This document shows positions 7,560 to 47,501 of a stretch of DNA of 64,000 bases, piece after piece. Location of the stretch: positions 16,331 through 80,330 of the IMG/VR virus record IMGVR_UViG_3300025695_000006. One strand, written 5' to 3'. How positions within the stretch are numbered: position 1 is the stretch's first letter; each line of letters opens with the position of its first letter. Source of the stretch: a virus. A model generated the notes under the pieces. It did no database searches. It was not told the origin of the DNA and saw nothing but the letters and a program-made list of their open reading frames with translations. The position numbers were made by a program, and so were the translations under genes.

Positions 7560-7599
7560 ATCTTATTTATATCTTTAATTGTCTTTAATTCTAATAACT

Positions 7600-13136: not shown

Positions 13137-13144
13137 TTAATTAA

Positions 13145-13813: not shown

Positions 13814-13843
13814 AATTCTTTTATTTATAAATACCTTTAAAAC

Positions 13844-13874
13844 AAAAAACCCACGATTAAGTGGGTTTTTTTTT
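13844..13874. terminator. Bidirectional intrinsic terminator
   Basis: A6-CCCAC-gattaa-GTGGG-T9, immediately after the stop of 13873..14121. Confidence 0.8.
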
Positions 13875-14121: not shown

Positions 14122-14818
14122 TTGGAGCTTGTATATTAATCGTTAAGTCTAGCCCAGGTTCGTTGTCGTTTAGGTACTTTCTGAATTTCGAGGAATCCAT
14201 TGGAGACATAGCGTCTACGAATTGAACAATAGCTGCTTTATCCCTAATCCCATCAACTTCTGTTATTTGATTTTGTAATCTAAGTGTCATTACTTGTGAT
14301 ATAGCGCTTGAACCTAGTTTCTTACTTCTAATCTGATCGTCTTTAATCAACTTCTCATCTTCATAAGCAGTTAGGAATTTAAATTTTACGGTTTTACCAG
14401 ATTTTGGTAGTAAGAAAGAACACTCGCCGTTATCATCAGGAGTTAAATCAACTTCTTTTATAGGAAACTGACTAATATCAATATCCTCTACAAAAGTCTC
14501 ATCTGTTTTAGGGTCTGTTAATTCTACTGGGTATATCTCACCATAACCAGTAGACCTAAGGAAGAAAATAATAGCGTTTCTATCTCCAGGTAATAAATCC
14601 CCAGCCTTAATGTCTTTGTCTAAGATTTTTTTCTCTAATAATACATCTAACACTTTACCGCTCTGTAATAAGTTTGGTGATGTTAATATGTTTTCGTCTG
14701 AAGCTGTCATGTAAGCAACTTTAACGGTGTCTTTCTTGTTTTTGTAAAACAACCCTTTTGAAGGTAATGTAATTACATCATGTGCTGGTTCAAAGTATAC
14801 TTGTTCCGAATTTTCCAT
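14060..14818 (-). CDS. Baseplate hub assembly / tail assembly chaperone (T4 gp26-like)
   Basis: ITLPSKGLFY..VKVAYMTASDENIL..GDRNAIIFFLRSTGYG..LPKSGKTVKFKFLT..FLWP; between tube and tape-measure genes. Confidence 0.75.
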   Translation of the reverse strand: MENSEQVYFEPAHDVITLPSKGLFYKNKKDTVKVAYMTASDENILTSPNLLQSGKVLDVLLEKKILDKDIKAGDLLPGDRNAIIFFLRSTGYGEIYPVELTDPKTDETFVEDIDISQFPIKEVDLTPDDNGECSFLLPKSGKTVKFKFLTAYEDEKLIKDDQIRSKKLGSSAISQVMTLRLQNQITEVDGIRDKAAIVQFVDAMSPMDSSKFRKYLNDNEPGLDLTINIQAPSGEFFFGELPITSKFLWPYV

Positions 14819-31565: not shown

Positions 31566-32114
31566 ATGCTTATAATTGAAAATATCGGTGATGATAAGTT
31601 AGATGTTATTAGATACGCAATTGAAAATAAATACGAGGTTTCGTTCTGGTACAGAGGTGTTAAAGTTAGTGACCCTGACAATAAAAAGTACACTAAACAA
31701 AACTATAGACGCGTACAACCAGTAGCACTAGGTAAAAGTAAGGGTACTGGTAAATGGATGCTTAGGGCCTACCAAACTACAGGTGTGACTAACACAGAAA
31801 ACCAAAAATGGAAAACTTTCATTGTTGATGAAATTAAAGATAATACGATTAAAGTGATGTATGATAACACGGGTAAGAATCTAAAAACTTTCGAACCTAA
31901 AAGCGATTACAAAACGGATGGATCAGACAAAAAGATGGCTAATGATAAGTCTATAAATTATTTAGATGTTAATAAACCAGCTGGACCTAAAGATCCCAAT
32001 TATAAAGAACCAGAAATGGTAAATAAAAATGAAGAAGGAGAAAATGTCGATTTAACTATTAATGAATCTTACAGCTCTGGTTTTCTAAAATGGATATATA
32101 GTACATATGAATAG
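31566..32114 (+). CDS. Stand-alone WYL-domain protein
   Basis: IRYAIENKYEVSFWY..RRVQPVALG..WMLRAY..WKTFIVDEI matches the WYL pattern (AI..r..l.f.Y..R.v.P..L..WYL.a..R.F..drI). Confidence 0.75.
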   Translation: MLIIENIGDDKLDVIRYAIENKYEVSFWYRGVKVSDPDNKKYTKQNYRRVQPVALGKSKGTGKWMLRAYQTTGVTNTENQKWKTFIVDEIKDNTIKVMYDNTGKNLKTFEPKSDYKTDGSDKKMANDKSINYLDVNKPAGPKDPNYKEPEMVNKNEEGENVDLTINESYSSGFLKWIYSTYE

Positions 32115-32897: not shown

Positions 32898-33089
32898 ATG
32901 TCTGTAATAAAATTTTGTAAAAACAAATGTTGTCCAGTAATAGAGGTGAAAGAATCCACGATAGTACTTGGCGATAAAGAAGGTCCAGAAGGTATAACCA
33001 CATGGACTAAATCACAGTTTTCTGATTTTGTTGAGGCGGCCAAGTCGGGTAAGTTCGACGATATAACCACCAACAAACAAGAAAGTTAA
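32898..33089 (+). CDS. Small Cys-containing protein, DUF397-like
   Basis: CCPVIEV..IVLGDKEGPEG..W.KSQFSDFVEAAKSGKFD resembles DUF397 (CVEV..VRDSK.P.G..F...W..F...VK.G.FD). Confidence 0.5.
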   Translation: MSVIKFCKNKCCPVIEVKESTIVLGDKEGPEGITTWTKSQFSDFVEAAKSGKFDDITTNKQES

Positions 33090-33095
33090 AAACTC

Positions 33096-33133
33096 AAAAA
33101 CCCAATTAAATGCAATATATTAATTGGGTTTTT
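33096..33133. terminator. Bidirectional intrinsic terminator
   Basis: AAAAACCCAATTAA ... TTAATTGGGTTTTT inverted repeat. Confidence 0.7.
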
Positions 33134-33169
33134 AATTAAATTCACTATATTGCAATAAATCTACTAACT

Positions 33170-33940
33170 ATGAAACAAATAATCTTAAGCCTGTTAATCA
33201 CAACAGCACTATTCGCTTGTCGAAAAACATCACCAATGGAAGAATCAGAAAACACATTGGAAGTAACAGAAGCAAACATGGCTGTTATCGGAAAGAGAAC
33301 TGCAACTTGGTGCGGGCCTTGTGGAAGTTGGGGGTTTCCTCAATTTGAAACATTGAAAGAAACTTACAAAGGAAAAGCCCTATTTATGGCTTGGAAAGAC
33401 GCCTTTACAACTACCGAAGGTTCAACTTTGTTTGATGAAGTAGGACCAACTTTTAACTTAGGGGGTTCAGTACCAACATTTTTTTACAATTTTATTCCAA
33501 ACGCTGATGATTCAGTGATTACGAAGCACGTTGAATCTGATTACGTTGTTGCTAGCGCTAATTACGACATGGAAGTATCAGGTCAAAATGTGTTGTTAAA
33601 AACCACAACAAAGTTTTTTGCTAATGTGGAAGGTGTGTACTATATAGCCCCATACATGATAGTTGACAACATCGTTGGTTACCAAAATGGGCATGTTGAC
33701 GGGAACAACACAGTTCATCACAACTATGTTGCTAGAGTCGCAAAACCAACAACGGTTAGTTCAGTAGAAAACTTTGGGTACCAATTAACAACAAATGGTG
33801 CTGAAAGAGGCCACACAATTAACCTAGACTTTACAGTAAAAAAAGATGTTTCCTGGAAAACAAAAGATATTTCTTTCGGATTAGTGATCTACAAACAAGA
33901 ACCTTGGGGGTTACAATTTGTCAACGCATTCACTAAATAA
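33170..33940 (+). CDS. Omp28-like outer-membrane lipoprotein with thioredoxin-like WCGPC motif
   Basis: Signal peptide II MKQIILSLLITTALFA-C; TATWCGPCG; GYQNG..HHNYVAR. Confidence 0.75.
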   Translation: MKQIILSLLITTALFACRKTSPMEESENTLEVTEANMAVIGKRTATWCGPCGSWGFPQFETLKETYKGKALFMAWKDAFTTTEGSTLFDEVGPTFNLGGSVPTFFYNFIPNADDSVITKHVESDYVVASANYDMEVSGQNVLLKTTTKFFANVEGVYYIAPYMIVDNIVGYQNGHVDGNNTVHHNYVARVAKPTTVSSVENFGYQLTTNGAERGHTINLDFTVKKDVSWKTKDISFGLVIYKQEPWGLQFVNAFTK

Positions 33941-33970
33941 CTTTAATTAATAAAGGTAAATTTTTATTAT

Positions 33971-34717
33971 ATGAATAAGATTAGAATTCTAGTTATAGGT
34001 GAGAGTTGCACTGACGAGTTTATTTATTGTAAATCGGATAGATTATCACCAGAAGCCCCAGTACCAGTTTTAAACCCAATAAAAACTGTTAAAAATAGAG
34101 GTATGTCTGGTAACACAACAACAAATTTAAAGTCTATATTACCAAACTCTCAGATTACTTCAGTGATACAAACTGAAAATATAACTAAAACACGTTATAT
34201 CGAGAATAAATCTAACCATATGTTCTTAAGGGTAGATAAAGGTGAGGACAGTTTAACACCTATAGAATGGACTAACGATATCATAGAATCTATAAAACAG
34301 GCTGATATAGTCGTTGTAAGTGATTACAACAAAGGTTTTTTAAAGGATTCTGATGTAAAAAGAATAGGAGAGTTAAGTGAGTTATCTATATTAGATTCTA
34401 AGCGTAAATTAAATAATGATATTATAAATAGTTATACGTTTATAAAATTGAATGAATCAGAATATGGTAACAATAAACATTTAACACATAACGGTATTAT
34501 AGTAACACTAGGATCTAAAGGTGCTAGACATGGTAGTAAATTATACCCATCACTAAACCCTCAAGAAACCATAGACGTAAGCGGTGCTGGTGATACTTTT
34601 ACCGCTTCATTCATAACTACCTACTATATAACCTCAGATATTTCAGAAGCTATAATAAAAGCTAATGAAAACGCTTCCAACGTCGTAAGTAGAAGAGGGG
34701 TAGTAACACCCAAATAA
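33971..34717 (+). CDS. PfkB-family heptose-7-phosphate kinase (RfaE/HldE domain I-like)
   Basis: ILVIGE..D..RLSPEAPVPV, SDYNKG and DVSGAGDTF motifs. Confidence 0.85.
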   Translation: MNKIRILVIGESCTDEFIYCKSDRLSPEAPVPVLNPIKTVKNRGMSGNTTTNLKSILPNSQITSVIQTENITKTRYIENKSNHMFLRVDKGEDSLTPIEWTNDIIESIKQADIVVVSDYNKGFLKDSDVKRIGELSELSILDSKRKLNNDIINSYTFIKLNESEYGNNKHLTHNGIIVTLGSKGARHGSKLYPSLNPQETIDVSGAGDTFTASFITTYYITSDISEAIIKANENASNVVSRRGVVTPK

Positions 34718-34779
34718 ATAAACAGATTTACTTTAATTTATGCATTAAATTTACTATTATTACACAAATAATAAATTTA

Positions 34780-36003
34780 ATGAGTAAGATAAACATACTA
34801 GTTAACCCTAATGATAGGTCTGGATCTGGTAAATACAGGTGTATAGACCCACACGTAACCCTACAAAATAACCACAGTGAAGAATATTTTGTAGAGATAA
34901 ACCAAAATATAGATTTTAACGACACTAACTACCTAAAAAAGTTTAATATATTCTTTTTTAATAGGGTACCTGGGGGTAATTACCAACAAGCCGAAGAGAT
35001 TTTCGCTAAGATAAAATCTTTAGGTGGTAAAATAGTTCTTGATTTAGATGACTACTGGAGATTGGATAAATCTCACGGTATGTATTTACAGGCTAAAGAA
35101 GGTGGATACAGTAGAACTATTATCAATCTAGTTAAAAGTGCTGATATGGTAACTGTTACAACAGAAATACTAAGAGATGAAGTATTTAAGTACAACAAAA
35201 ACTGTTTCGTATTACCAAACGCGATTAACCCAAAAGAACAACAATTTACACCAAAACCTACAGAATCTGATAGATTAAGGTTCGGTTGGCTTGGCGGGTC
35301 TTCCCATATTAAAGATATCGAATTAATTAAAGATATAGCTCAGACCACAGCAAAACGAAAAGATGAAATACAATTTGTTTTATGCGGTTTCGATAAAAGA
35401 GGTAAGGTTAAAATGTTCAACCCAGAAACTAAAAAGTGGATGGAAAGAGATATGCAACCACTAGAAACTACATGGTTCATGTATGAGGTGTTTATAACTA
35501 ACAATTTTAGATTATTAGAGGGTGATACCGAGTATCTAAGTCATCTAATGAAGTTTGACCCAGAAGTTAAATTTGATGACTTAAACAAACCATACAGAAG
35601 GATATGGACAAAAAATATTAATAACTATGCTACAGGTTATAACGAGTTCGATGTAGCATTAGCACCTTTGTTAGATAACGAATTTAATAAATACAAGTCT
35701 CAGTTAAAAGTTATTGAGGCTGGTTTCCACAAAAAACCTATCATTGCACAAAACTACGGTCCGTATACAATAGATTTAATATCAGCGGTAAACAAAGGTG
35801 GTACTATTAACAGTGATGGTAACTCTTTATTAGTGGAAACTAGTAAAAACCATAAACAATGGGGTAAACACGTTAAAATGTTAATGGATAACCCAAATAT
35901 GGTAACGGACTTAGGTGAAAAGTTATACGAAACAGTTAAAGATCGTTACGATATAAATAACGTAACAAAATATAGAGACGAATTATACAAATCATTAGTT
36001 TAG
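34780..36003 (+). CDS. GT-B fold glycosyltransferase (GT4-like)
   Basis: VLDLDDYW, ADMVTVTT, VLPNAI, FGWLGGSSH, DVALAPL..FN.YKSQLKVIEAG. Confidence 0.85.
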   Translation: MSKINILVNPNDRSGSGKYRCIDPHVTLQNNHSEEYFVEINQNIDFNDTNYLKKFNIFFFNRVPGGNYQQAEEIFAKIKSLGGKIVLDLDDYWRLDKSHGMYLQAKEGGYSRTIINLVKSADMVTVTTEILRDEVFKYNKNCFVLPNAINPKEQQFTPKPTESDRLRFGWLGGSSHIKDIELIKDIAQTTAKRKDEIQFVLCGFDKRGKVKMFNPETKKWMERDMQPLETTWFMYEVFITNNFRLLEGDTEYLSHLMKFDPEVKFDDLNKPYRRIWTKNINNYATGYNEFDVALAPLLDNEFNKYKSQLKVIEAGFHKKPIIAQNYGPYTIDLISAVNKGGTINSDGNSLLVETSKNHKQWGKHVKMLMDNPNMVTDLGEKLYETVKDRYDINNVTKYRDELYKSLV

Positions 36004-36004
36004 A

Positions 36005-36589
36005 ATGGAAAATCATTTAGATAATATAAACATAAACGAACTTCTTAGTGAGGATGTTAAGAAAGACTTAGAAAGTGTGTTAGGTCAAACACAAGATTTA
36101 ATGGGTGACTGGGATTACGACCAAGAAACCATGAGTATAAAATTAAAAGTATCATTTATAAATAAATCTGACAACCCTGACCCATCATACGAAAAACACG
36201 GCGACAGTGGTTTTGATATTAGAGCCAATATAGATGAACCGATCGAACTAAAACCAGGTAATAGAACATTAATAAAAACTGGTTTATATTTTCAGATACC
36301 GTTAGGTTATGAATTACAGGTTAGGTCTAGAAGTGGTTTAGCCCTTAAAAACGGTGTGATGGTATTAAATAGTCCTGGTACAGTAGACTCTGGTTACAGA
36401 GGCGAAGTAGGGGTTATACTTTATAATACAGATAATTCAGAATCATTTGCCGTAAATAATGGTGATAGAATAGCCCAAGGAGTTATAGCCGCCGTACAAA
36501 CAATGGATAGGACTAAACTTATAAAAAAAGATAAACTATCTTCATCAGAAAGAGGTGAAGGCGGGTTTGGTTCAACAGGAGTTAAATAA
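36005..36589 (+). CDS. dut: Trimeric dUTPase with N-terminal extension
   Basis: SGFDI, RSRSGLA, GTVDSGYRGE, GDRIAQ and RGEGGFGSTG (motifs I-V). Confidence 0.95.
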   Translation: MENHLDNININELLSEDVKKDLESVLGQTQDLMGDWDYDQETMSIKLKVSFINKSDNPDPSYEKHGDSGFDIRANIDEPIELKPGNRTLIKTGLYFQIPLGYELQVRSRSGLALKNGVMVLNSPGTVDSGYRGEVGVILYNTDNSESFAVNNGDRIAQGVIAAVQTMDRTKLIKKDKLSSSERGEGGFGSTGVK

Positions 36590-36593
36590 TGTT

Positions 36594-36896
36594 ATGGAAG
36601 AATTTAAAGAACAAATAAAGGCTTACAAAACTATCACACCAGATGTACTAGATAGAGTCGAGTACAAAACAGTTTGGTCTGGTAAAAGGATAGAGGTCGG
36701 AGATAAAGTATTGTACGCATTTGTTTATCCACCAGGATCGGACGAGTATAAGTTAGCCACTTTCCTCCAAAGAGAGCTAAATGAGGTTAGTTTAAAATTT
36801 AGTTTCATACAGATGTTTAATGGGATCATACCTGTATTAAAATTTAAAGACGATGATACGGTACGAGAATTAATAGAAGAAAAAGATGAAGACTAA
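36594..36896 (+). CDS. Hypothetical protein
   Basis: Likely start is the ATG at 36594 (MEEFKEQ), just after the dut stop. Confidence 0.65.
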   Translation: MEEFKEQIKAYKTITPDVLDRVEYKTVWSGKRIEVGDKVLYAFVYPPGSDEYKLATFLQRELNEVSLKFSFIQMFNGIIPVLKFKDDDTVRELIEEKDED

Positions 36897-38325
36897 CATT
36901 AAGATCAGTGTCGTTTTCTCAACCAGAGCTATAGACGATTCATTTGTTGAACACGTAAAAAAAACATGTCTACATAAAGGTGTTGAAGTATTACCGTACC
37001 TAAATAACGGAGAATACTCATTAACTGAAATATACAACAAAGGGTTAAAAGAAGCGTCTAGTGATATAGTGGTTTTTTGTCATGATGATATAATTTTTGA
37101 AACAAAAAATTGGGGTAATAAGTTAATAAAACATTTTGATAAAAATGAAGAATATTCCATACTAGGTGTTGCTGGCACGAATCACATGATCAGTGGTATG
37201 TGGTGGGAGATAAGGAACGCTATGCACGGAACCGTTAAACACACCGACGGTAATAAAGTATGGGAGAATAAATTCTCTAAAAGTTACGGTAATGAACTAA
37301 AAGAGATGGTTGTTCTGGATGGTTTATTTTTAGCGGTAGATAGGACTAGGTTAATAAGTAAATTCGATGAATCGTATAAAGGGTTCCATTTCTATGACAT
37401 ATCATTTTGTTTTGATAATCATATAAATGGGGCTAAAATAGGTTTAATGTCTAATATTAAATTGATACATAAATCGGTTGGTGGTACTAACAAACAATGG
37501 GAGGAGAATAAATTAATCTTTGAGACCAGAAATTCTAAAAACATACCAATAAACCTAAATAAAAACACCTCACATATAGTATTCGATAAATCATTACCAA
37601 AAGTAGACTTACACGTACTATGTTGGAACGAAGAAAAGATAATCCCTTCATTTTTAAAACACTACGAAAACTGGGTTGATAGAATCATAGTTTACGATAA
37701 CAAATCTAATGACAATAGTGTTAAGATATTAACTGAACACCCTAAAGTAACTATCATTAGTTACGATACTGGTGGTGAAATACGCGACGATGCCTACCTA
37801 CAGATAAAAAATAATTTATGGAAAAATTCGATAGGTAGAGCGGACATTGTAATAGTTTGTGATATGGACGAGTTTCTATATACCGAAAACATAGGAACTT
37901 TAATACGAAACTTTAACGATAGTAGTGCTACTATAATAAAACCAGTGGGTTATGATATGATAATAGAGGATTTCGACATCACTAAAAGTGTTGATTTATT
38001 AAGTGACGTTAAATACGGTATAAGACACAATCATTTTGACAAACTATGTATGTTCAAGCCAAGTGAGATAAAGGAGATTAATTATAATTTCGGCTGTCAT
38101 GTCGCTAACCCCTCTGGTAATGTAAAGTATTTCGATGGTGATGTTAAACTATTACATTATAAAAAAATAGGGTTAAAATACTTTCTAGATAAAATGGGTA
38201 GTTACCATAAAAGGTTAAGTAAGTTTAACAGGGATAGATCCCTGGGTTACCAATACGATTTCGATAGAGAGAAACATATCACAGACTTCACTAAAGATTC
38301 TCATAAAAGTAAAAAAGTTATATGA
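36886..38325 (+). CDS. Two-domain GT-A (GT2-like) glycosyltransferase
   Basis: Domain 1 YNKGL..VVFCHDDI..DGLFL..FHFYD; domain 2 CWNEEKII..YDNKSND..VIVCDMDEF..LLHYK. Confidence 0.85.
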   Translation: MKTNIKISVVFSTRAIDDSFVEHVKKTCLHKGVEVLPYLNNGEYSLTEIYNKGLKEASSDIVVFCHDDIIFETKNWGNKLIKHFDKNEEYSILGVAGTNHMISGMWWEIRNAMHGTVKHTDGNKVWENKFSKSYGNELKEMVVLDGLFLAVDRTRLISKFDESYKGFHFYDISFCFDNHINGAKIGLMSNIKLIHKSVGGTNKQWEENKLIFETRNSKNIPINLNKNTSHIVFDKSLPKVDLHVLCWNEEKIIPSFLKHYENWVDRIIVYDNKSNDNSVKILTEHPKVTIISYDTGGEIRDDAYLQIKNNLWKNSIGRADIVIVCDMDEFLYTENIGTLIRNFNDSSATIIKPVGYDMIIEDFDITKSVDLLSDVKYGIRHNHFDKLCMFKPSEIKEINYNFGCHVANPSGNVKYFDGDVKLLHYKKIGLKYFLDKMGSYHKRLSKFNRDRSLGYQYDFDREKHITDFTKDSHKSKKVI

Positions 38326-38855
38326 AAGAAGTTTTATTGATAGGTAATGGTCCGTCTTGTTTAGATAAAGAATTGGGTGAACTAATAGACTCTCATGAAA
38401 CAGTTATTAGGTTCAATGACTTCGAGACAAAAGGTTACGAAAAACACGTTGGTACCAAAACAGACGTATGGGTCAAGACTAAAATGTCATCTAAACATAT
38501 AACCAAAAACTTCAAAAGTAAATTCTACGTTTACCCAAACATCATAAGATGTACCGAAGAAGAGAAGAAGATTTTAGTTAATGATGGGTTTAATGTGATC
38601 CCTGTAAAATTCTACAACAAGGTAAATAAATTGTTAGACGCTGGTAACCTATGGGCCACTACTGGATTAGTGATGATATACTATTTTATAGAAAAAGGTT
38701 ATAATGTCAAAATACATGGTTTTGATTTCTTTGAGAATGGAGTTCATTACTATAAAGACGATAATAAAATGATAGGTCATAGACCAGACTTAGAAAAGGC
38801 TTTGGTCAACAATCTCATTAATAAAGGTGAAGTTAAATTATTATATAATGGATAA
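38322..38855 (+). CDS. GT29 sialyltransferase-like protein 1
   Basis: Sialylmotif L (IGNGPS..G.LID..VIRFN..GY..HVGTKT), S (TTG..V.IHGFDFF), III (HYY) and VS (HRPDLE). Confidence 0.8.
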   Translation: MKEVLLIGNGPSCLDKELGELIDSHETVIRFNDFETKGYEKHVGTKTDVWVKTKMSSKHITKNFKSKFYVYPNIIRCTEEEKKILVNDGFNVIPVKFYNKVNKLLDAGNLWATTGLVMIYYFIEKGYNVKIHGFDFFENGVHYYKDDNKMIGHRPDLEKALVNNLINKGEVKLLYNG

Positions 38856-39498
38856 ACTTAAAATATTAATACCAGCCAGAAGAAACTCAAAAGGCTTACC
38901 TTTTAAAAATAGGTTACTTTTTAACGAAACAGTTGATAGTATACCTAAAAAATACCACAAATACATAATTGTATCAACAGATGATGAAGTATTGATCGAA
39001 AAATGTGAATTAATGGGTTTAAAAGTTTCTATTAGACCAGATGAGTTAGCCATTGACACAACCAGCACAAAAGAAGTCATTGAATACCTAGTTAAAAACG
39101 GTGATTTAAATTACGACGATGTGGTTATAATGCTATACCTAACTTACCCAGAAAGAACTTTTAAAGAGGTTAAAAATGTCTATAAATTATTTTTAGATAA
39201 TAAAGAAAAAAGTTTGTTGTGTAAAAAGGATTTTAAAGGTGTACACCCATATTTATATATGTTAAACGCAGGTAACAACAAAGGTAGACAGTTAGTTAAA
39301 CATAATCTATACAGGAGACAAGACTACCCAGAAATATTTGAAATATCTCATTACATATCTATATTTAAGGTTAGTGAATTAGGTAAACTAAACAATAATT
39401 TATATAATGATGATACATATTTCTTTAAAATATACGATGTTATAGACGTTGACACTAAAAAAGATTTTGATGGGTTACTTCGCAAAGAAAAAAAATAA
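38848..39498 (+). CDS. neuA: CMP-nonulosonate (acylneuraminate) cytidylyltransferase
   Basis: LIPARRNSKGLPFKN, VSTDD, RPDELA, RRQD and IDVDT; likely start is the ATG at 38848. Confidence 0.9.
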   Translation: MDKLKILIPARRNSKGLPFKNRLLFNETVDSIPKKYHKYIIVSTDDEVLIEKCELMGLKVSIRPDELAIDTTSTKEVIEYLVKNGDLNYDDVVIMLYLTYPERTFKEVKNVYKLFLDNKEKSLLCKKDFKGVHPYLYMLNAGNNKGRQLVKHNLYRRQDYPEIFEISHYISIFKVSELGKLNNNLYNDDTYFFKIYDVIDVDTKKDFDGLLRKEKK

Positions 39499-40453
39499 GG
39501 GTAAATCAATAGTTACTAAGAGTAACCAGAAACAAAGAATTAAAATTAATTCTCAGGTCGATGAGGTCTTAGAAAACGTGGTTGAAATAGTAACAGCTAA
39601 CAACCCTAAAAAAGGTCTTAAAGTGAATAAAACTAAAAATGTTGACTTAAAGAAAGGGGTTGTAAAAACAGAACAAAAAAATGTTGACTTAAAGAAAGGG
39701 GTTGTAAAAACAGAACAAAAAAATGTTTCTGAACCTACACTCACCACTATTAAAGGAACTAAAACAAAAAACAATGATAAGTCTAATCAAGAATTATATG
39801 ACGAAACCATTGACAGATTATTAAACCAATTTTTAAAAAAACGCTCTTTATTATCTTTAGATAATTTAAAGAGGATGATAAAAAATAAGACTATAATATT
39901 AGTTGCTAACTCATCAGACTTACTTAAAAAAGAAAATGGTGATATTATTGACTCTAATGATATTGTCGTAAGATTCAACTCATTTAAATTAAACGAAGTA
40001 TATACTGGGTCTAAAACTACAATACATGTTAGCGTATACCTACAAGACGAAAATCTAGATAAATACGTACCTATAAGATTTATCATATCAAATAACCTCA
40101 CTAACTGGATCAATAAGGTTAAAGGTTTAAACAAGGTTCATCAGGGGTTAATACTTAAGTATAACCACCATAATGATCATAATAGTATGAAAACAGACGA
40201 ACAACCAAGCACTAGCGGGTATACCATGCTAAAGTTATTATTACACCTAGGTGGGTTTAAAAAGATAGACCTAATAGGATTTAACTTCTATGACGGTGGT
40301 GAAAATAGTTTATTAAGGACAGATAAAGGTTTAGAGTACGAGATATCTAAAGTACATAATTATAAGAAAGAGAAATTAGAAATAATGAGTATGGCTTTTG
40401 AGTATGATAAAAAAAATAATATAATAACTTTTTATGATAGTAACACATACTAA
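39470..40453 (+). CDS. GT29 sialyltransferase-like protein 2 with Lys-rich N-terminal extension
   Basis: L motif ILVANSS..G.IIDS.DIVVRFN..TGSKT; S motif PSTSG..IDLIGFNFY; VS motif HNYKKE; likely start is the ATG at 39470. Confidence 0.75.
   Translation: MGYFAKKKNKGKSIVTKSNQKQRIKINSQVDEVLENVVEIVTANNPKKGLKVNKTKNVDLKKGVVKTEQKNVDLKKGVVKTEQKNVSEPTLTTIKGTKTKNNDKSNQELYDETIDRLLNQFLKKRSLLSLDNLKRMIKNKTIILVANSSDLLKKENGDIIDSNDIVVRFNSFKLNEVYTGSKTTIHVSVYLQDENLDKYVPIRFIISNNLTNWINKVKGLNKVHQGLILKYNHHNDHNSMKTDEQPSTSGYTMLKLLLHLGGFKKIDLIGFNFYDGGENSLLRTDKGLEYEISKVHNYKKEKLEIMSMAFEYDKKNNIITFYDSNTY
39635..39727 (+). repeat. Perfect 42-nt tandem duplication (KNVDLKKGVVKTEQ x2 plus partial)
   Basis: Units begin at 39635, 39677 and (partial) 39719. 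Confidence 0.9.
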
Positions 40454-41285
40454 ACACACCAACATAGCCGAGGCACCAGAAGCTATAAGTGAGGTTATAA
40501 ACAAATATACCGAACATAAATCATATGTTGTTGGTTATTCTTACCCAGGTAAATTAATTATACCTAATTCAGATATAGTACACCAACACAACAAGAAGTT
40601 CTATACTACCAAGAAAAGTATTATACAATACCACAGTGAACCTTTTAGAGTTGAATTAAATGTTGATATACCAAAACTAGTAATAGCCCAATATCATGCC
40701 ACCTTACCCGAATATAGACATTGTAGAGTGGTAAGAAACCCAGTAGATTTATTTGATGTTAAATACATCCCCAAATATCAAAACAAAGTAATTAGAATAG
40801 GATATTCACCATCTTCAACAACACCCTCGTCTAAATGGGCTGATAAGGGTTACAAAGAAACTATACCAATCCTAAATAAAATAAAAAAAATATATAAAGA
40901 TAAAGTGGAGATAGAGGTGATTACTGGGGTGCCACTAGAAGAATGTCTCAAAAGAAAATCTGAGTGTAATATATTTATAGATGAAGTTAAGACCGATTCG
41001 TATCACAGATCAGGCCTCGAATCAATGGCCATGGGTATAACAACCATATGTTCTGTTAGTAAGGAAGTAGAAGAAGTTTTACTAAGGTCGTCAAACGCTA
41101 AAACAAACCCTTTTATTAACACGTATCACCAAAACTTAGAAATAGAATTAATTAATTTAATAGAATCTGGTTTAAATAAAATAATTGATAAAGGTTACGA
41201 AAGTAGATTATGGATGGAGAACCATTGGGACCCAGAAACTATCGCAAATGAATACATTAAAATATACGAAAAATGGCTAGATTAA
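40434..41285 (+). CDS. GT-B fold glycosyltransferase-like protein
   Basis: IGYSPS..KG..CLKRKSECNIFIDE..SGLESMAMG..W..HWDP..Y. Confidence 0.7.
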   Translation: MIVTHTKHTNIAEAPEAISEVINKYTEHKSYVVGYSYPGKLIIPNSDIVHQHNKKFYTTKKSIIQYHSEPFRVELNVDIPKLVIAQYHATLPEYRHCRVVRNPVDLFDVKYIPKYQNKVIRIGYSPSSTTPSSKWADKGYKETIPILNKIKKIYKDKVEIEVITGVPLEECLKRKSECNIFIDEVKTDSYHRSGLESMAMGITTICSVSKEVEEVLLRSSNAKTNPFINTYHQNLEIELINLIESGLNKIIDKGYESRLWMENHWDPETIANEYIKIYEKWLD

Positions 41286-41908
41286 ACATGGAAACAATGA
41301 AAGATGTACTAAATGAAAATTTGGATATATCAAAAATAAAATTAATTTATGACGTAGGGTGTTTAAACGGAGTTGACAGCTTCCTTCTATCAGAATTATT
41401 TGACGCTAAAGTTATAGGGTTCGAAGGTTTACCCAACAATTACAAAAAATTCCTACTAGGTAAAGATACCGAAAAAGTTAGTTTTGAAAATTTCGTAATA
41501 AGAGATTACGATGGGGTAACACATTTTTACGAAAAAGAACAAAATGGTATACATAGTATTTTTGAACAAAATTTATCAAAAACTAAAGAACGGTTAGTTG
41601 AGTTAAAATGTAAAAGGATGGACACGTACATAACAGAAAAATCCTTAGATATACCCGACCTCGTTAAAATAGATGTTGAAGGAGCTACATTAGAAGCCTT
41701 AAAAAGTTTTGGTGGTATTTTAGAGGATATAAAAATACTACAAATTGAAACTGAGGAGGTTGAATATTTCACAGGACAAACTTTAGAACCTAAAGTTATG
41801 GAATACCTTTACAGTAAAGGATTTTTTCCTATATTTAAATCAACAGCAATTAACGTCAAACAGAATGACTATATTATGTTAAATAAAAAATATTATAAAC
41901 AAAAGTAA
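41273..41908 (+). CDS. FkbM-family SAM-dependent methyltransferase
   Basis: IYDVGCLNG, IGFEG and PDLVKIDVEGA motifs. Confidence 0.9.
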   Translation: MARLNMETMKDVLNENLDISKIKLIYDVGCLNGVDSFLLSELFDAKVIGFEGLPNNYKKFLLGKDTEKVSFENFVIRDYDGVTHFYEKEQNGIHSIFEQNLSKTKERLVELKCKRMDTYITEKSLDIPDLVKIDVEGATLEALKSFGGILEDIKILQIETEEVEYFTGQTLEPKVMEYLYSKGFFPIFKSTAINVKQNDYIMLNKKYYKQK

Positions 41909-41911
41909 ATT

Positions 41912-42751
41912 ATGAATAGTAAGACAAAGATTATAGGTGAAATAGGTATCAACCATAACGGGGATATAGCTATAGCAAAACAATTAATATTAGTAGCTAA
42001 AGCTGCTGGTTGTGATTATGTTAAGTTTCAAAAAAGAAACCCAGACATATGTGTTCCAGAGGAACAGAAAGGTAAGATGAGACAAACTCCTTGGGGTGAG
42101 ATAACTTACTTAGAATATAAATGGAAAACTGAGTTCGGTGAAGCTGAGTACGATGAAATAGATAGGTTTTGTAAAGAGATTGGTATTAACTGGTTCGCAT
42201 CCGTTTGGGATAAAACATCTGTAGATTTTATGATGAAGTACGAAAGTGACCTAGGAGTAGCTATGAAAATACCATCGGCGTTGATAACCGATATTGAATT
42301 ATGTGAGTATGCTAGAGAAAAGGCCGATTACTTAATGATATCAACAGGTATGAGTAATGAAGATGAGGTTACTTTATGTATAGATGCGTGTAACCCAGAC
42401 GTTATAATGCACACAAACTCAACATATCCATGTCCAGTAAACGAATTAAATTTAAATTACATAACATGGTTAAAAAACCACTACGCTGAAAAAGAAATAG
42501 GTTATAGCGGACATGAGTACGGGCTAGTAACCACTTTCGCTGCTATACCAATGGGCGTAAAATGGGTAGAACGCCACATAACACTAGACAGGGGTATGTG
42601 GGGATCCGATCATTCAGCTTCAATTGAACCATCTGGTTTATTTAAATTAGTTAAAGGTATTAGAGATATAGAAGAATCATTATCAATACCAGAAGGTCCT
42701 AGAGAATTATTTGGTGGTGAACTATCTAAAATGAAGAGTTTAAGGAAATAA
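41912..42751 (+). CDS. neuB: N-acetylneuraminate/nonulosonate(-9-P) synthase, lacking the C-terminal SAF domain
   Basis: IIGEIGINHNGD, VKFQKR, MKIPS, ISTGMS, HTNSTYP, GYSGHE, ERHITLDR..GSDH. Confidence 0.95.
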   Translation: MNSKTKIIGEIGINHNGDIAIAKQLILVAKAAGCDYVKFQKRNPDICVPEEQKGKMRQTPWGEITYLEYKWKTEFGEAEYDEIDRFCKEIGINWFASVWDKTSVDFMMKYESDLGVAMKIPSALITDIELCEYAREKADYLMISTGMSNEDEVTLCIDACNPDVIMHTNSTYPCPVNELNLNYITWLKNHYAEKEIGYSGHEYGLVTTFAAIPMGVKWVERHITLDRGMWGSDHSASIEPSGLFKLVKGIRDIEESLSIPEGPRELFGGELSKMKSLRK

Positions 42752-42762
42752 AATTAATTTAT

Positions 42763-43053
42763 ATGTTAATATATGTTGATATAGATAATACTATATTTAA
42801 AACAGGGAGTACCGACTATACAACCAGTACCCCAATGATGGACAGAATCAAAAAGATAAATAAATTATACGACGAAGGGAACACTATTGTTTATTGGACG
42901 GCAAGGGGTTCCGTAACAGGTATAGATCATTCGGAACTAACCAAGAAGCAATTTAAGGAATGGGGAGTCAAACACCATGAATTGAAATTCGGCAAACCTC
43001 CTTACGATATTTTTATCGACGATAAGAATATAAACAGTGAAGATTACTTTTAA
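42763..43053 (+). CDS. Capless HAD phosphatase (capsule-locus type)
   Basis: YVDIDNTI, YWTARG, GKP and FIDDK (HAD motifs I-IV). Confidence 0.85.
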   Translation: MLIYVDIDNTIFKTGSTDYTTSTPMMDRIKKINKLYDEGNTIVYWTARGSVTGIDHSELTKKQFKEWGVKHHELKFGKPPYDIFIDDKNINSEDYF

Positions 43054-43067
43054 TACAAAACATACAT

Positions 43068-43805
43068 ATGGCTAGAAAAGCTAGAAAAAAATTATCATAC
43101 GAAGAACAGCAGGATATCCTAGAATCAATGAGTAATGATCATCAAGGGAACGATTTTTTAAAAAGAATTAAGGTTGATATAAAGTGTAAAACGGTTAACC
43201 AGAAAAAACTAGTTAAAGAAATAAAGGATAAAGAGATGGTTATATGCTCTGGATTACCAGGTACAGGTAAAACTTACTTGTCCTGTGCAGTCGCACTAGA
43301 TTTAATAAAAAATGATGGCAGATATCGAAAAATAGTTATAGTTAAGTCGGTTACAACATTAAAAGATGAAGAGATAGGCTTTTTAAAAGGTACTATGAAA
43401 GAAAAGATGGAACCTTTTATGTACTCTTTTATGCATAACTTCGAAAAGATAGTCGGTAAATATAATACTCAAACCCTTAGAGAAGCGGGTATGATAGAAG
43501 AAATGCCTATAGCGTACATGAGGGGTATAAATATAGATAACTCCATAGTAATCATAGACGAGGCTCAAAATATCTCTATAGATAACATAAGAACCATAAT
43601 GACAAGATTGGGTGAGAACTCTAAAATGATATTTTTAGGTGATGAGAATCAAGTAGACATGAAGAGAAAGGGTCAGAGTTCCTTACACTTTATAATCGAA
43701 AAGTTTTCTGATTTTGAAGAGGTGGGTACTGTCGTACTTACTGACAGTGACGTAGTCAGAAACCCGTTGATTAAAAAAATAGAACAAATATTTAGAGAAA
43801 AATAG
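43068..43805 (+). CDS. phoH: PhoH-family ATPase
   Basis: GLPGTGKT, IGFLKG, AYMRG, DEAQN, TRLG, GD..Q.D and VVRNP motifs. Confidence 0.95.
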   Translation: MARKARKKLSYEEQQDILESMSNDHQGNDFLKRIKVDIKCKTVNQKKLVKEIKDKEMVICSGLPGTGKTYLSCAVALDLIKNDGRYRKIVIVKSVTTLKDEEIGFLKGTMKEKMEPFMYSFMHNFEKIVGKYNTQTLREAGMIEEMPIAYMRGINIDNSIVIIDEAQNISIDNIRTIMTRLGENSKMIFLGDENQVDMKRKGQSSLHFIIEKFSDFEEVGTVVLTDSDVVRNPLIKKIEQIFREK

Positions 43806-43858
43806 ATGTAGACTTTATTTTATACCAATTATCTACTAATTTTAATAAAAAATAGAAC

Positions 43859-44497
43859 ATGATAATTGGTATAACAATAAACAATATTTTACGTGACCAC
43901 GTATCAAAATTGAAAGACCTTTACGAATTTGAGTTTGAGAAAGAGGTAGAGGGTCCTATAAACCCATTTAAGTTATCAGAACATTTCCCTGATATTGATC
44001 CTGTTATTGAATCACCAGAATTTAAGGATGATGGTAAAGAGATTGAATTCCCTGAAAACGCTAAAGATAACGGGTTTAATTTAGATAAATTCATGTATGA
44101 CGAAGCTTCTTTTGAAATATTCGGCAGAACTGATGAAACGGAACAAGGTATCATTAAAAATATATCAGATTTCTCCAATAAAAACAGGATCAAAATAGTA
44201 TTACTTAATAACGAAAGTCAGAGGTCAAAAGCGGCGACGCTTTTCTTCCTAAGTAAGAATTATTACAATCTAGAACAAGTTATTTTCCCTAAAAAATGGA
44301 AAGACTTCTGGACGCACTGTGACGTAATCGTTACAGACAATCCCAAGCTACTAAAATCTAAACCAAAAGGTAAAATATCGATAAAACATATAAACGATTT
44401 TAATATTGACATTAAATCCGATTATGCTATAATTAACACAAAGGAATTATTTAAACTCCTAAGAAAATTAAAAAAAGAAAATAATGGAAAAAGGTAA
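43859..44497 (+). CDS. 5'(3')-deoxyribonucleotidase-like HAD-fold protein with degenerate motif I
   Basis: IGITINNILRD in place of IGIDxDGVLRD; CDVIVTDNP..N at the C-terminus. Confidence 0.55.
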   Translation: MIIGITINNILRDHVSKLKDLYEFEFEKEVEGPINPFKLSEHFPDIDPVIESPEFKDDGKEIEFPENAKDNGFNLDKFMYDEASFEIFGRTDETEQGIIKNISDFSNKNRIKIVLLNNESQRSKAATLFFLSKNYYNLEQVIFPKKWKDFWTHCDVIVTDNPKLLKSKPKGKISIKHINDFNIDIKSDYAIINTKELFKLLRKLKKENNGKR

Positions 44498-45563
44498 AGA
44501 ATTGGTTAGTAACCTAGAATCTGCTATAGCTAAGATTCAAAATAAAGAACATAAAATAATATTTATGGTACCAGACACTAAAGGTAACGGTAAATCAAGT
44601 GTTATTCACCTGTACGACCAAGCATTAGCTTTAAAAAACGCTGGGTATAATGTAGCAATGTTACACGAAAAAAACGACTTTATAAAAGTGGGTAGTTGGT
44701 TATCAACAGAATGTGACGAGATAGAACACATGTCTATTGAAGATAATAACTTAGTTGTAGGTCCTTCAGACTTTATAGTAGTACCAGAAGTGTACGGAAG
44801 CGTTTTTGAGCAGATAGTTAACATGCCTATGGAGAAAATAATCTATGTACAATCTTACGATTATATGTTAGAGGCATTCTCACCTGGTAAATCTTGGCTT
44901 GATTCTGGTGCCGAAGAATGTATAACAACATCAAACACTCTCAAGGATATGATTGAAGGTACTGTACCAGTAAAAGACGTACAATTCATAGAACCTAAAA
45001 TAGGTGGTAGCTTCAAACCTAGCGAAAAACCACAAAAACCTATTATTGCGATACATTGTCGTGAAGCCAGAAAAGCAGCTAAATTGATAAAGGCTTTTTA
45101 CATGAAATATCCTATCTATAGATTCGTTTCATTTAAAGATATGCACACAATGAATCACGACGATTTCGCTTCAAACTTAAAAGAATGTGCTGTATCAGTC
45201 TGGATAGACGATGACTCGTCATTCGGTAGATTCCCAGTAGAATCAATCAAATCTAACGTACCCGTTATAGGTAAAGTACCTAATATTATCCCAGAATGGA
45301 TGACTGACGATAACGGTGTATGGATGTACGATGAGAACCAAATACCTGAAATATTATCTAGTTTTATAAAAAATTGGTTAGACGACACGCTACCTGATAA
45401 CTTAACTAATGTTAAGGAAACTATTAAGGACAGGTACTCGGAAGATAATTTCGAAAAAAATACTGTAGAGGTATTTGAACACTTATTCGATAAGAAAGTG
45501 AGTAAATTAGAAAAAATAAAAGAGAATATTAAAGAAACATTACAAGAAGATGAGCAAAAGTAA
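44484..45563 (+). CDS. GT-B fold glycosyltransferase-like protein
   Basis: DFIVVPEVY, IIYVQ, FASNLKECAVSVWIDD.SSFGRFPVES..VPVIG. Confidence 0.7.
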   Translation: MEKGKELVSNLESAIAKIQNKEHKIIFMVPDTKGNGKSSVIHLYDQALALKNAGYNVAMLHEKNDFIKVGSWLSTECDEIEHMSIEDNNLVVGPSDFIVVPEVYGSVFEQIVNMPMEKIIYVQSYDYMLEAFSPGKSWLDSGAEECITTSNTLKDMIEGTVPVKDVQFIEPKIGGSFKPSEKPQKPIIAIHCREARKAAKLIKAFYMKYPIYRFVSFKDMHTMNHDDFASNLKECAVSVWIDDDSSFGRFPVESIKSNVPVIGKVPNIIPEWMTDDNGVWMYDENQIPEILSSFIKNWLDDTLPDNLTNVKETIKDRYSEDNFEKNTVEVFEHLFDKKVSKLEKIKENIKETLQEDEQK

Positions 45564-46383
45564 TTTAACAATTATAGTACCAGTACATTCAGTAGAAGAT
45601 GCGGGTAAACATAAGTTTGATGATATGTTCGATATAGCACTATCATCCATTAACATAAATGAAACTAAACCAGAAAAGGTACTAGTAGTCATATGTGATT
45701 GTTCCGATGTCAAAGAAAAGGTAGAATCAGTAGATTTTGGTAAATACGATGGACTAGACATAGAAGTTATAGTTAACACTGGTGAAACTGATTACCAAAG
45801 TCAGATAAACTTCGCTGCTAAAGAGGTTAACACTGAATTTATGAGTGTCCTAGAGTTTGATGATGAATTATCTAAAACTTGGTTTAAAAACGTTAACGAC
45901 CACATAGAGTCTTACCCTGAAGTAGATTTATTCTTACCCATCGTAAATGATGTTGACCAAGAAGGTAATTTCATTGGGTTATCGAACGAAGCTGTATGGG
46001 CGTACAACTTTACTGAAACAGTTGGTAATATTGATCTAGAAGTACTACTTGAATACCCTAACATCAGTTTATGTGGTATGGTTATAAAAACTGAAGTGTT
46101 TAATAATATAGGTGGTTTAAAACAAATTAAACTAACATTTAATTATGAATTCCTATTAAGATTCCATAGTAATGGTCATAAATCAATGGTCATCCCTAAG
46201 ATAGCTTACAAACACGTAAACATGAGAGATAACTCTTTATTCTGGTTGTACAAAAATAGTGAAGCCTTAGAATATAAGATCGAACCAAATGAGGGTTTAT
46301 TCTGGATGGAAACTGCTAAGAAAGAGTATTTGTTTAATGATGATAGAAATATAAAATATGAGGATGTAGAAACAGTTGATTAA
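45550..46383 (+). CDS. GT-A (GT2-like) glycosyltransferase
   Basis: LTIIVPVH, INFA, EFMSVLEFDD, IGG..YEFLLR. Confidence 0.75.
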   Translation: MSKSNLTIIVPVHSVEDAGKHKFDDMFDIALSSININETKPEKVLVVICDCSDVKEKVESVDFGKYDGLDIEVIVNTGETDYQSQINFAAKEVNTEFMSVLEFDDELSKTWFKNVNDHIESYPEVDLFLPIVNDVDQEGNFIGLSNEAVWAYNFTETVGNIDLEVLLEYPNISLCGMVIKTEVFNNIGGLKQIKLTFNYEFLLRFHSNGHKSMVIPKIAYKHVNMRDNSLFWLYKNSEALEYKIEPNEGLFWMETAKKEYLFNDDRNIKYEDVETVD

Positions 46384-47096
46384 TGGGTAGGAAGAAAAAA
46401 AATAAAACCTACTATGGTCCAGAGCAAGAAGAAGCTGTTGTTAGGTTTTTAGAAGCTGAGTCTGACTACGAACGCCAAAAAATCTATAGGGAAGAATTAA
46501 GAGCCCCTATAGATAAGTTAATAGAAAACATAATAAGAACGTATAGACTTTACAGACCATCTTATGAGTTCGAAGATCTACATTCTGATACATTATCGTT
46601 TCTAATAACTAAATTCGACAAATTCAAACCAGAAAAAGGTAAAAAATCGTACTCGTATTTCGGTACTATATGTAAAAATTATCTCTTTGGTGAAATGGTC
46701 AAGGAGCACAAAAGGAATACATCATTAGTAGATATTGATAAAAGTCAGAGTGATGTATTAAAAAGAGATGGGTACACTTACTATATAGACACTGAAGATA
46801 TAGACTTTACACTTTTCTTAGAAAATTTAGCTATAAGTGTTAGAGAAGATTTGAAGAATGATAACCTATCCGACAATGAGTTTAAGGTTGGTTACGCACT
46901 AGCCAAAATATTAGAAGAGTGGAGGGAATTATTCTCAGATGTAAGCGATGGTAAAAATTCAACTAAATTCAACAAAAACTTAATTCTACTTTACATAAGA
47001 AATATGACAGGTTTAAACACTAAAGAAATAAGGAATAGTATGAAAAGGTTTAAATCATTATATAAAATGTTTAAGAACGATTATCTAGATGACTGA
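46383..47096 (+). CDS. Phage late sigma factor (T4 gp55-like, sigma-70 region 2)
   Basis: KLIENII..DLHSDTLSFL..KFDKFKPEKGKKSYSYFGTICKNYL resembles sigma regions 2.2-2.4 (FdpeK..afsYf..I..n). Confidence 0.75.
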   Translation: MGRKKKNKTYYGPEQEEAVVRFLEAESDYERQKIYREELRAPIDKLIENIIRTYRLYRPSYEFEDLHSDTLSFLITKFDKFKPEKGKKSYSYFGTICKNYLFGEMVKEHKRNTSLVDIDKSQSDVLKRDGYTYYIDTEDIDFTLFLENLAISVREDLKNDNLSDNEFKVGYALAKILEEWRELFSDVSDGKNSTKFNKNLILLYIRNMTGLNTKEIRNSMKRFKSLYKMFKNDYLDD

Positions 47097-47120
47097 TATT
47101 TATTATAAAATAATATTATT

Positions 47121-47501
47121 ATGGCAATAAAGAAAAAAAAGGTAGAAGTTACTGAAGAAAGCATGAGGGAACTAATGCAAGAAACTTATAATGAGATAGT
47201 TGACGAAAGAAGCAGGGCGTTATCTGCATATAAAAAGTTTAGTAAAGACATACAAGAAAATTCAGATATAGCTTTAGTTGGTAAAATAACTAACGATTTA
47301 CTTAAAATAATTGACTCTTCGATAGAAAAAAAGATTAGGTTAATTAAAATACAAGGTGATATACTGTATAAATCTGGTAAACCAATTGAAGGTGCTGGTT
47401 CAAATATGACTATAACTGAAGATGATCGAAAGTGGGCCGAAGAATTCCTTAAAAACCAATCTAAGGATAACTCAAACGGAAACGAAAAAAAATATGAATA
47501 G
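47121..47501 (+). CDS. Hypothetical helical late protein
   Basis: 126-aa ORF preceded by TATTTAT (47097). Confidence 0.7.
   Translation: MAIKKKKVEVTEESMRELMQETYNEIVDERSRALSAYKKFSKDIQENSDIALVGKITNDLLKIIDSSIEKKIRLIKIQGDILYKSGKPIEGAGSNMTITEDDRKWAEEFLKNQSKDNSNGNEKKYE

Follow-up and report, generated by a model that had tools for sequence, protein, structure and literature searches.

We analysed a 64,000-nucleotide stretch of viral DNA (hereafter, the window), which spans positions 16,331 to 80,330 of the IMG/VR record IMGVR_UViG_3300025695_000006, and focused on seven contiguous open reading frames (ORFs) at positions 38322-43053. These ORFs are all on the + strand, have ends that overlap or nearly abut, and encode two glycosyltransferase family 29 (GT29)-like enzymes, a NeuA-type cytidylyltransferase, a GT-B glycosyltransferase, an FkbM methyltransferase, a NeuB-type synthase and a HAD phosphatase. 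A preliminary description of the window had proposed them as a nonulosonate (sialic acid-type) pathway, and each of the seven was recovered with a match to the family proposed for it. Our results suggest that this stretch is probably the central part of an island that serves the phage in glycan building, by making, activating and transferring a nonulosonate of the Kdn (2-keto-3-deoxynononic acid) type. The window covers 64 kb of an 80.3-kb record with a CheckV completeness of 27%, and several of the searches reported below also covered a syntenic relative, L004, a 154-kb fragment with a completeness of 52%.

Enzyme families encoded by the cassette

The first gene (38322..38855, +) encodes a protein of 177 aa, here termed mini-GT29 #1, that matched PF00777 (Glyco_transf_29) with an E-value of 1.8e-17 and 64.1 bits (cut-off 23). 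As previously noted from the letters alone, it carries all four sialylmotifs: L (~38331-38423, GNGPS...RFN), with which the protein begins, S (~38652-38726, TTG...HGFD), III (38745-38756, HYY) and VS (38778-38795, H-x4-E). The motif residues are (near-)invariant in 13 close and 60 diverse homologues and were aligned by phmmer with those of pig ST3Gal-I. An AlphaFold2 model built on a 60-sequence alignment had a pLDDT of 94 and a pTM of 0.91, and when it was compared to the PDB with Foldseek, every match at E <= 0.001 (42/42) was a sialyltransferase. GT29 entries were on top (ST6GalNAc2, ST8SiaIII, ST3Gal-I and ST6Gal1; query TM-score 0.67-0.79), followed by the GT42 enzymes CstII/CstI (E 4e-6). 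With a target TM-score of ~0.5, the model covers roughly one half to two thirds of the catalytic domain in the animal enzymes. By sequence and modelled fold, mini-GT29 #1 belongs to GT29, and the sialyltransferase fold on which the preliminary description had staked its reading was found for this protein. No hydrophobic segment was detected in it (maximum KD19 1.06), the type II anchor and stem are not present, and inspection of the sequence revealed no Cys at the positions of the eukaryotic L-S disulfide.

The second GT29-like gene (39449..40453, +; likely start ATG 39470, as judged from the orthologues in L004 and in another related locus, L002) matched PF00777 in its C-terminal half with 26.5 bits (cut-off 23), and a six-frame search of the 80-kb record reproduced both PF00777 matches. 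Motifs L (as ANSS...RFN), S and VS are retained, in agreement with the earlier reading. The catalytic domain (~residues 142-315) was aligned by hhalign to the mini-GT29 profile with a probability of 98.2, which is profile-profile evidence for its fold; by sequence, the protein belongs to GT29. The catalytic domain is well conserved relative to the L004 orthologue, whereas the N-terminal ~120 aa are Lys-rich and poorly conserved. This region contains a perfect 42-nt tandem repeat (x2.2, 39635-39727) that encodes a 14-residue K/V-rich unit, and the net charge of the protein is +21.

The NeuB-family synthase (41912..42751, +; 279 aa) matched PF03102 with an E-value of 9.7e-60. It consists of the TIM barrel alone, ends at residue 279, and has no match to the SAF domain; SAF-less NeuBs are known in environmental bacteria (PMC8208679). 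The residues that bind phosphoenolpyruvate (PEP) and metal in Neisseria meningitidis NeuB are paired in the phage enzyme as follows (phage/N. meningitidis): E10/E25, K38/K53, Q40/Q55, K119/K129, S122/S132, H201/H215, E220/E234, H222/H236 and D233/D247. Most PEP- and metal-binding residues are also invariant across an alignment of phage and bacterial NeuBs. Sequence scores against NeuBs of known structure (SpsE, 88.7 bits; PseI, 84.1; 6ncs, 83.2; N. meningitidis NeuB, 51.3) did not discriminate among them. In all of the aligned NeuBs that are linked to a HAD gene, a KFQ-KR dyad follows strand beta-2 and precedes a conserved W-G-x-x-T-Y loop. The NeuB of viral locus L005, the cluster of which has no HAD gene, has Thr-Trp in place of the KR dyad, and still other residues occupy this position in the enzymes of the PDB whose substrates are unphosphorylated sugars. 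Moreover, the corresponding loop of human NANS favours a phosphorylated substrate (review, PMC8208679). On the basis of 12 sequences, we propose that the KR dyad is a phosphate-binding signature. Together with the coupling of NeuB to HAD, it provides a testable sequence signature for nonulosonate synthases that use phosphosugars.

The phosphatase gene (42763..43053, +) starts 11 nt past the end of NeuB and encodes a capless HAD protein of 96 aa with a DIDNT motif (phrog_1238, E 8.7e-26), a candidate nonulosonate-9-phosphate phosphatase. Its NCBIfam matches are weak: 27 bits for the EcbF/BcbF capsule phosphatase subfamily and weaker still for the BT0820-family HAD. In many records of T4-like cyanophages, the DxDxT HAD of phrog_1238 is labelled 'phosphoheptose isomerase'; by its sequence it is a capless HAD phosphatase, and the name looks like a propagated misannotation. 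The putative CMP-nonulosonate synthetase (NeuA/PseF-like cytidylyltransferase; 38827..39498, +, likely start ATG 38848 from the L004 and L002 orthologues) scored 27.4 bits on CTP_transf_3 (PF02348; cut-off 22.6). All three of the profile searches that the preliminary description had suggested, i.e., Glyco_transf_29, NeuB and CTP_transf_3, gave matches over their cut-offs. Iterative searching also tied this NeuA to the CTP_transf_3 genes of the bacterial module described below.

Between the second GT29-like gene and NeuB lie two further genes. The ORF at 40434..41285 (+; 283 aa) had no Pfam match, and its 174 metagenomic homologues are nearly all labelled 'hypothetical'. Its AlphaFold2 model (pLDDT 94.4) matched GT4-type enzymes in Foldseek (PimA, 2.2e-9; BshA, MshA and PglA), so that the earlier GT-B call holds and the modelled protein is a compact, two-Rossmann GT-B enzyme of the GT4 type. 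The FkbM methyltransferase (41273..41908, +) matched PF05050 (E 2e-10) and TIGR01444 (57.2 bits, cut-off 37.7).

The preliminary description had called GT29 the family of eukaryotic Golgi sialyltransferases. This is incomplete, considering that bacterial GT29-like genes have been described (PMC5811610) and that our mini-GT29 profile, searched against 1.84 billion representatives, yielded 6553 matches at E <= 0.001 (2369 at E <= 1e-10), mostly of 170-210 aa. In metagenomic proteins, the mini-GT29 domain is fused to GT2_4/GT92, GT8, GT4, GT2 plus methyltransferase, or 2-oxoglutarate-dependent oxygenase partners. Two of these proteins (P0024 and P0034) join it to the same GT2_4/GT92 domain that is encoded by the gene directly upstream of the cassette, a two-domain GT-A enzyme (36886..38325, +; Glyco_tranf_2_5 and Glyco_tranf_2_4/GT92-like, Pfam E 2.6e-25 and 4.4e-17), the stop codon of which overlaps the start of mini-GT29 #1. 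Since the fused glycosyltransferase domains are of the same kinds that flank mini-GT29 #1, and given this overlap with the GT2-type gene, the data argue that mini-GT29 #1 and its flanking glycosyltransferases work on one glycan.

The cassette in other viruses and in marine bacteria

A search with the NeuB alignment identified at least 561 IMG/VR contigs with this type of NeuB, and the best 80 loci (54-93% identity) were analysed over +/-10 kb. The small HAD gene was present in 74 of these and lay directly downstream of NeuB in 41; NeuA was found in 72, a GT29-like gene in 29, PhoH in 27 and PfkB in 2. NeuB, HAD and NeuA occurred together in 67 of the 80. When the NeuBs were collapsed at 95% identity, 61 clusters remained, with HAD in 56, NeuA in 57 and GT29 in 24. 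Because of these locus counts, the conserved core is NeuB-HAD-NeuA, and GT29 is an optional transferase, one among several. The recurrence in related phages that the preliminary description had proposed to look for is thus borne out, most strongly for HAD and NeuA.

The whole cassette is syntenic in L004. Three other loci (L001-L003) keep mini-GT29 #1, NeuA, NeuB and HAD, with a GT8 protein in place of the second GT29-like enzyme, the GT-B enzyme and FkbM; in these, FkbM and another methyltransferase have been relocated between NeuB and HAD. In two unrelated phages (L005/L006), the gene order is DegT-GT2-NeuB-NeuA-dehydrogenase-GT29-methyltransferase. In LR756508, an uncultured phage of 484 kb, NeuB is surrounded by four GT29-like genes, and a GDP-mannose dehydratase gene and the same small HAD are also present. 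In this unannotated record (L012; LR756508.1 314000-334000, 8025-13193 of that segment), one GT29 paralogue shortly precedes NeuB, which has no SAF domain; immediately after NeuB comes a gene for a GIY-YIG (LEM-3-like) endonuclease, and then the other three paralogues; the GDP-mannose 4,6-dehydratase gene and an epimerase gene are upstream, and the mini-HAD is downstream. A single-virus genome, Marine virus AG-345-L05 (L013; MH319754.1, Kyanoviridae), encodes at 5424-13421 a GT1-like enzyme, a short-chain dehydrogenase/reductase, CTP_transf_3, DegT, a SAF-less NeuB, the mini-HAD, an epimerase/dehydratase and a methyltransferase. No GT29 was found in this locus, which, from its gene content, would seem to be a version of this core for amino-nonulosonates.

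Mini-GT29 genes also occur in bacteria. Among species-representative genomes, seven contigs with such genes were recovered, i.e., four Neomarinimicrobiota/Marinisomatota metagenome-assembled genomes (MAGs), one FCB-group MAG, one alphaproteobacterial MAG and one unclassified contig. CTP_transf_3 is directly downstream in six of the seven, and NeuB lies within a few kb in five. In two of them (L019 and L020, ~8000-14200; a Marinisomatota-type and an unclassified MAG contig), genes for an NTP-transferase, LicD, mini-GT29, CTP_transf_3, a NeuB that has the SAF domain (351-363 aa) and a HAD protein (161-172 aa) form a counterpart of the phage module. These two contigs also carry GlnRS, HtrA, WaaA (the Kdo transferase; Kdo, 3-deoxy-D-manno-octulosonic acid), an MsbA-like ABC transporter and GT25; WaaA stands next to the module in L020, and L019 has the MsbA-like transporter, GT25 and a second GT29/NeuA/NeuB set. 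As judged from these neighbours, both contigs are cellular and the setting is that of a lipopolysaccharide (LPS) or lipooligosaccharide (LOS) core. The two HAD proteins scored 185.1 and 181.2 bits on NF058599, the Kdn-9-phosphate (Kdn-9-P) phosphatase equivalog (cut-off 180), well over their KdsC scores. This bacterial HAD is the best available evidence on the chemistry of these modules, and it supports the view that GT29-linked NeuB modules run a Kdn-type 9-phosphate route. The gene content of these contigs further suggests that SAR406-type bacteria may bear LOS decorated with Kdn and phosphocholine.

Proposed pathway and competing explanations

The route from mannose-6-phosphate (Man-6-P) by way of Kdn-9-P and Kdn to CMP-Kdn is established in Bacteroides thetaiotaomicron and Prymnesium parvum (PMC6200933). 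Building on the gene identities, the two modelled folds and the linkage statistics, we infer the substrate, product, order of steps and target of the phage pathway as follows. The SAF-less NeuB would condense PEP with a phosphorylated hexose, most likely Man-6-P, to give a nonulosonate-9-phosphate of the Kdn-9-P type, from which the adjacent mini-HAD would strip the phosphate. The NeuA-like enzyme would then form the CMP-sugar. The linkage of the GT29-like genes to NeuA and NeuB points to a CMP-nonulosonate donor, and the two soluble, disulfide-free GT29-fold enzymes would transfer the sugar with inversion, with the VS-motif histidine acting as the base. Their acceptor would be a glycan assembled by the soluble GT-A and GT-B transferases encoded alongside, and FkbM may add an O-methyl group. 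No membrane segment was found in any island protein, so the chemistry is expected to be cytoplasmic and to involve soluble or peripheral enzymes; nor was a flippase, a polymerase or an initiating phosphoglycosyltransferase found among these proteins. The glycan could be carried by a host lipid-linked envelope glycan (LOS/LPS-core type) or by virion proteins of the phage, and, by analogy with the context of the bacterial counterpart, we lean slightly toward a host lipid-linked core glycan.

A number of observations weigh against this interpretation. The phage NeuB has Leu at the position of Glu134, the proposed catalytic residue of N. meningitidis NeuB (the NeuBs of the bacterial counterparts have Asp), and both NeuB (189.9 bits on the NeuB/NnaB equivalog TIGR03569, cut-off 399.65) and NeuA (52.5 bits, E 5e-14, on its best equivalog PseF, cut-off 205.7) are far under the NCBI equivalog cut-offs. 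KFQKR was among the search patterns used to collect the 80 loci, which makes that set uninformative on the dyad. The second GT29-like enzyme has no HYY at motif III, either by motif inspection or in the profile alignment. The phage HAD had no match to NF058599 and is not of the KdsC/Kdn-9-P-phosphatase family. Its phrog_1238 type is present in 390 of 50,697 GenBank phage records, and in the cyanophages listed its neighbours bear the annotation carbohydrate kinase or nucleotidyltransferase (in two cases ADP-heptose synthase), while a PfkB kinase gene is located 8 kb upstream in the same island. As only ~27% of the genome was recovered, precursor genes could lie elsewhere. Finally, we found no biochemistry in the literature for a prokaryotic or viral GT29-like protein or for a SAF-less NeuB. 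The Kdn-like route of the preliminary description is therefore retained in part: the trio of synthase, phosphatase and synthetase recurs, and the bacterial HAD passes the Kdn-9-P phosphatase model, but the phage HAD falls in a different HAD subfamily. We consider a Kdn-type sugar to be the most likely product.

The same module might instead make another sugar, with N-acetylmannosamine-6-phosphate (as in animal NANS) or a host hexosamine derivative leading to N-acetylneuraminic acid or some other N-acylated nonulosonate, and we regard this as rather unlikely. The best NCBIfam model for NeuB is NeuB_NnaB (189.9 bits vs 136.4 for PseI) and that for NeuA is PseF, DegT aminotransferases and dehydratase/epimerases adjoin NeuB in phage clusters L005 and L013, and the incompleteness of the genome leaves room for such genes here. 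However, neither NeuC (PF02350), the epimerase that the preliminary description had noted as absent from the window, nor DegT (PF01041) nor an acetyltransferase was found in the 80-kb record or in the syntenic 154-kb relative, both of which are fragments, and it is the Kdn-9-P phosphatase cut-off that the bacterial HAD proteins exceed.

It is distinctly unlikely that the HAD and PfkB proteins belong to a separate sugar-nucleotide pathway (e.g., for heptose) and that NeuB uses an unphosphorylated sugar by the ordinary bacterial route. The wide distribution of this HAD among GenBank phages, its cyanophage neighbours and the kinase at 33971-34717 would all fit such a pathway. However, across the 80 loci HAD tracks NeuB and not PhoH or PfkB, the bacterial counterparts likewise couple NeuB to a phosphatase, and no GmhA-type SIS_2 or HldE-type adenylyltransferase (CTP_transf_like) was found in the 80-kb record or the 154-kb relative.

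The GT29-like enzymes could also be transferases for Kdo or another ulosonate that draw on host CMP-Kdo and are loosely tied to the NeuB pathway. Plant GT29-like proteins are suspected Kdo or Dha (3-deoxy-lyxo-heptulosaric acid) transferases, viral loci L009-L011 have GT29-like genes but neither NeuB nor NeuA in the 10 kb around them, and the bacterial module adjoins WaaA in L020. We nevertheless find this improbable, considering that CTP_transf_3 is adjacent and NeuB nearby in most GT29-bearing viral lineages, as CTP_transf_3 is in six of the seven bacterial loci, and that mini-GT29 #1 overlaps NeuA in the window. Least probable is that the island hypermodifies phage DNA instead of proteins or lipids. 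Some phage glycosyltransferase clusters do place mono- to trisaccharides on 5-hydroxymethylcytosine (Pyle et al., bioRxiv 10.1101/2023.12.21.572611), the present island includes a gene of the dUTPase/dCTP-deaminase-like type, all of its enzymes are soluble and the N-terminus of the second GT29-like enzyme is strongly basic, but that preprint makes no mention of sialic-type sugars, the bacterial module has an LPS-core context, and the 80-kb record and 154-kb relative yielded no thymidylate-synthase-like hydroxymethylase (PF00303), no C5-methyltransferase (PF00145) and, in a weak search with a control that gave no match, no TET/JBP dioxygenase (PF12851).

Extending the Kdn-type reading beyond this phage, we tentatively entertain, as possible rather than probable, that large aquatic phages widely encode a self-sufficient cytoplasmic line in which a SAF-less, phosphate-recognizing KFQ-KR NeuB works with a mini-HAD to turn central metabolites into Kdn or its O-methylated form, with which minimal GT29 enzymes of 177 aa cap a phage-built glycan on virion proteins or on the envelope of the infected cell. 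If so, the animal sialyltransferase family would gain a first assigned function for its prokaryotic and viral branch, and eukaryotic GT29 would have a possible source other than the alpha-proteobacteria from which it has been proposed to derive. Sugars of the sialic acid type are well known as markers of self and as caps that mask receptors. A virus-borne line for their synthesis, activation and transfer could alter the way in which other phages, grazers or defence systems recognize infected cells or virions.

The surrounding island, its phage and comparison with known systems

The cassette lies within a longer run (33971-46383) in which every gene is on the + strand and most overlap or are a few bases apart. 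Its upstream edge is the gene for the PfkB-family carbohydrate kinase (33971..34717, +; Pfam PfkB, E 1.2e-11), which is kept in L002-L004. It is followed by a putative GT-B enzyme of the GT1/GT4-like type (34780..36003, +; 407 aa), whose match to Glyco_trans_1_4 (E 0.0014) is under the cut-off and which is syntenic in L001-L004 and present in 21 of the 80 NeuB loci. The dUTPase/dCTP-deaminase-like gene (36005..36589, +; phrog_135 dUTPase, E 2.4e-54) and then a 113-aa ORF stand mid-island among the glycosyltransferases, again syntenic in L001-L004. Beyond the cassette, a PhoH-like ATPase gene (43068..43805, +; PF02562, E 1.7e-58) flanks the module but is outside it, and a further GT2-family glycosyltransferase (45550..46383, +; PF00535, 25 bits, cut-off 23.3) closes the run. 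Directly after this last gene, a 237-aa ORF (46383-47096) matched sigma-70 region 2 under the cut-off (E 4.7e-4) and may encode a sigma-like factor. Between the polymerase gene and the island, a 182-aa ORF (31566-32114) has a WYL-domain match (E 4e-4) barely under the cut-off. The packing resembles that of an operon: no terminator-like site was found on the + strand within 33000-47500. A promoter scan showed no enrichment (63 matches vs 71 expected).

Genes for a tail sheath, a helicase, a family-B DNA polymerase (PolB), the large terminase subunit (TerL) and a portal protein in the window bear out the phage origin given in the preliminary description. TerL shows no more than 31% identity to its counterparts in T4-like myoviruses, among them Flavobacterium phage immuto, and the source is probably a distant T4-like, uncultured virus of jumbo size, with G+C of ~32%. 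Since L004 is 154 kb at 52% completeness, a total genome size of about 300 kb is probable. No tRNA genes were found, and hence no hint of the host. When 10 kb from the window was compared with GenBank phages by megablast, no match was obtained. Because tblastn against the same phages gave just two weak GT29 matches and three NeuB matches, the GenBank isolates are largely uninformative.

Virus-encoded soluble glycosyltransferases and sugar-nucleotide genes are known from the capsid or fibril glycans of chloroviruses and mimiviruses and from virion glycosylation in mycobacteriophages. To our knowledge, none of these systems has GT29 or a NeuB/HAD/NeuA nonulosonate route. The KO table of a virome survey from 2013 includes hits to neuB, and in open-access papers we found no description of a phage GT29 or of a phage nonulosonate module. 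The nearest bacterial enzymes by family are the 23 GT29-like sequences, mostly alpha-proteobacterial, that Petit et al. (2018; Sci Rep 8:2946, PMC5811610) identified in silico and from which they argued that eukaryotic GT29 has its origin in bacteria; the words 'phage' and 'virus' are absent from that paper. Like that set, the enzymes described here are prokaryote-encoded, have sialylmotifs, extend to marine bacteria and are known in silico only. Unlike it, mini-GT29 #1 is phage-borne, has a length of ~177 aa and is linked to NeuB, NeuA and HAD, and it has thousands of relatives, including those in Marinisomatota MAGs. The GT29-NeuA-NeuB-Kdn-9-P-phosphatase modules of Marinisomatota, together with hundreds of phage copies, therefore bear on the origin of the eukaryotic family.

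With the eukaryotic GT29 enzymes (ST3Gal-I, 2wnb; ST6GalNAc2, 6apl; ST8SiaIII, 5bo9; ST6Gal1), the phage enzyme shares the GT-A-variant fold and the residues of motifs L, S, III and VS, but it is cytoplasmic by prediction, has no anchor, stem or disulfide cysteines, and has about two thirds of the catalytic-domain length. Indeed, this soluble, disulfide-free core of 177 aa is the smallest enzyme of sialyltransferase fold that we have noticed, and it would be attractive for enzymology and as a scaffold for glyco-engineering. CstII and CstI of Campylobacter jejuni (GT42) are of the same fold class, are soluble or peripheral and act on LOS; however, the phage sequence is that of a GT29, and a weak CST-I match (E 0.0047) was seen in the L005 homologue only. 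As in the CMP-Kdn pathway of B. thetaiotaomicron and P. parvum, a NeuB-family synthase, a HAD phosphatase and CTP_transf_3 occur together with no 2-epimerase. The phage version differs in that its synthase is SAF-less, its phosphatase is of 96 aa and from another HAD subfamily, its host genome is viral, and it is physically coupled to GT29-type transferases. The module appears to be a viral, minimal variant of known parts, i.e., a nonulosonate 9-phosphate route and a GT29-fold transferase, and it is both intact and widespread.

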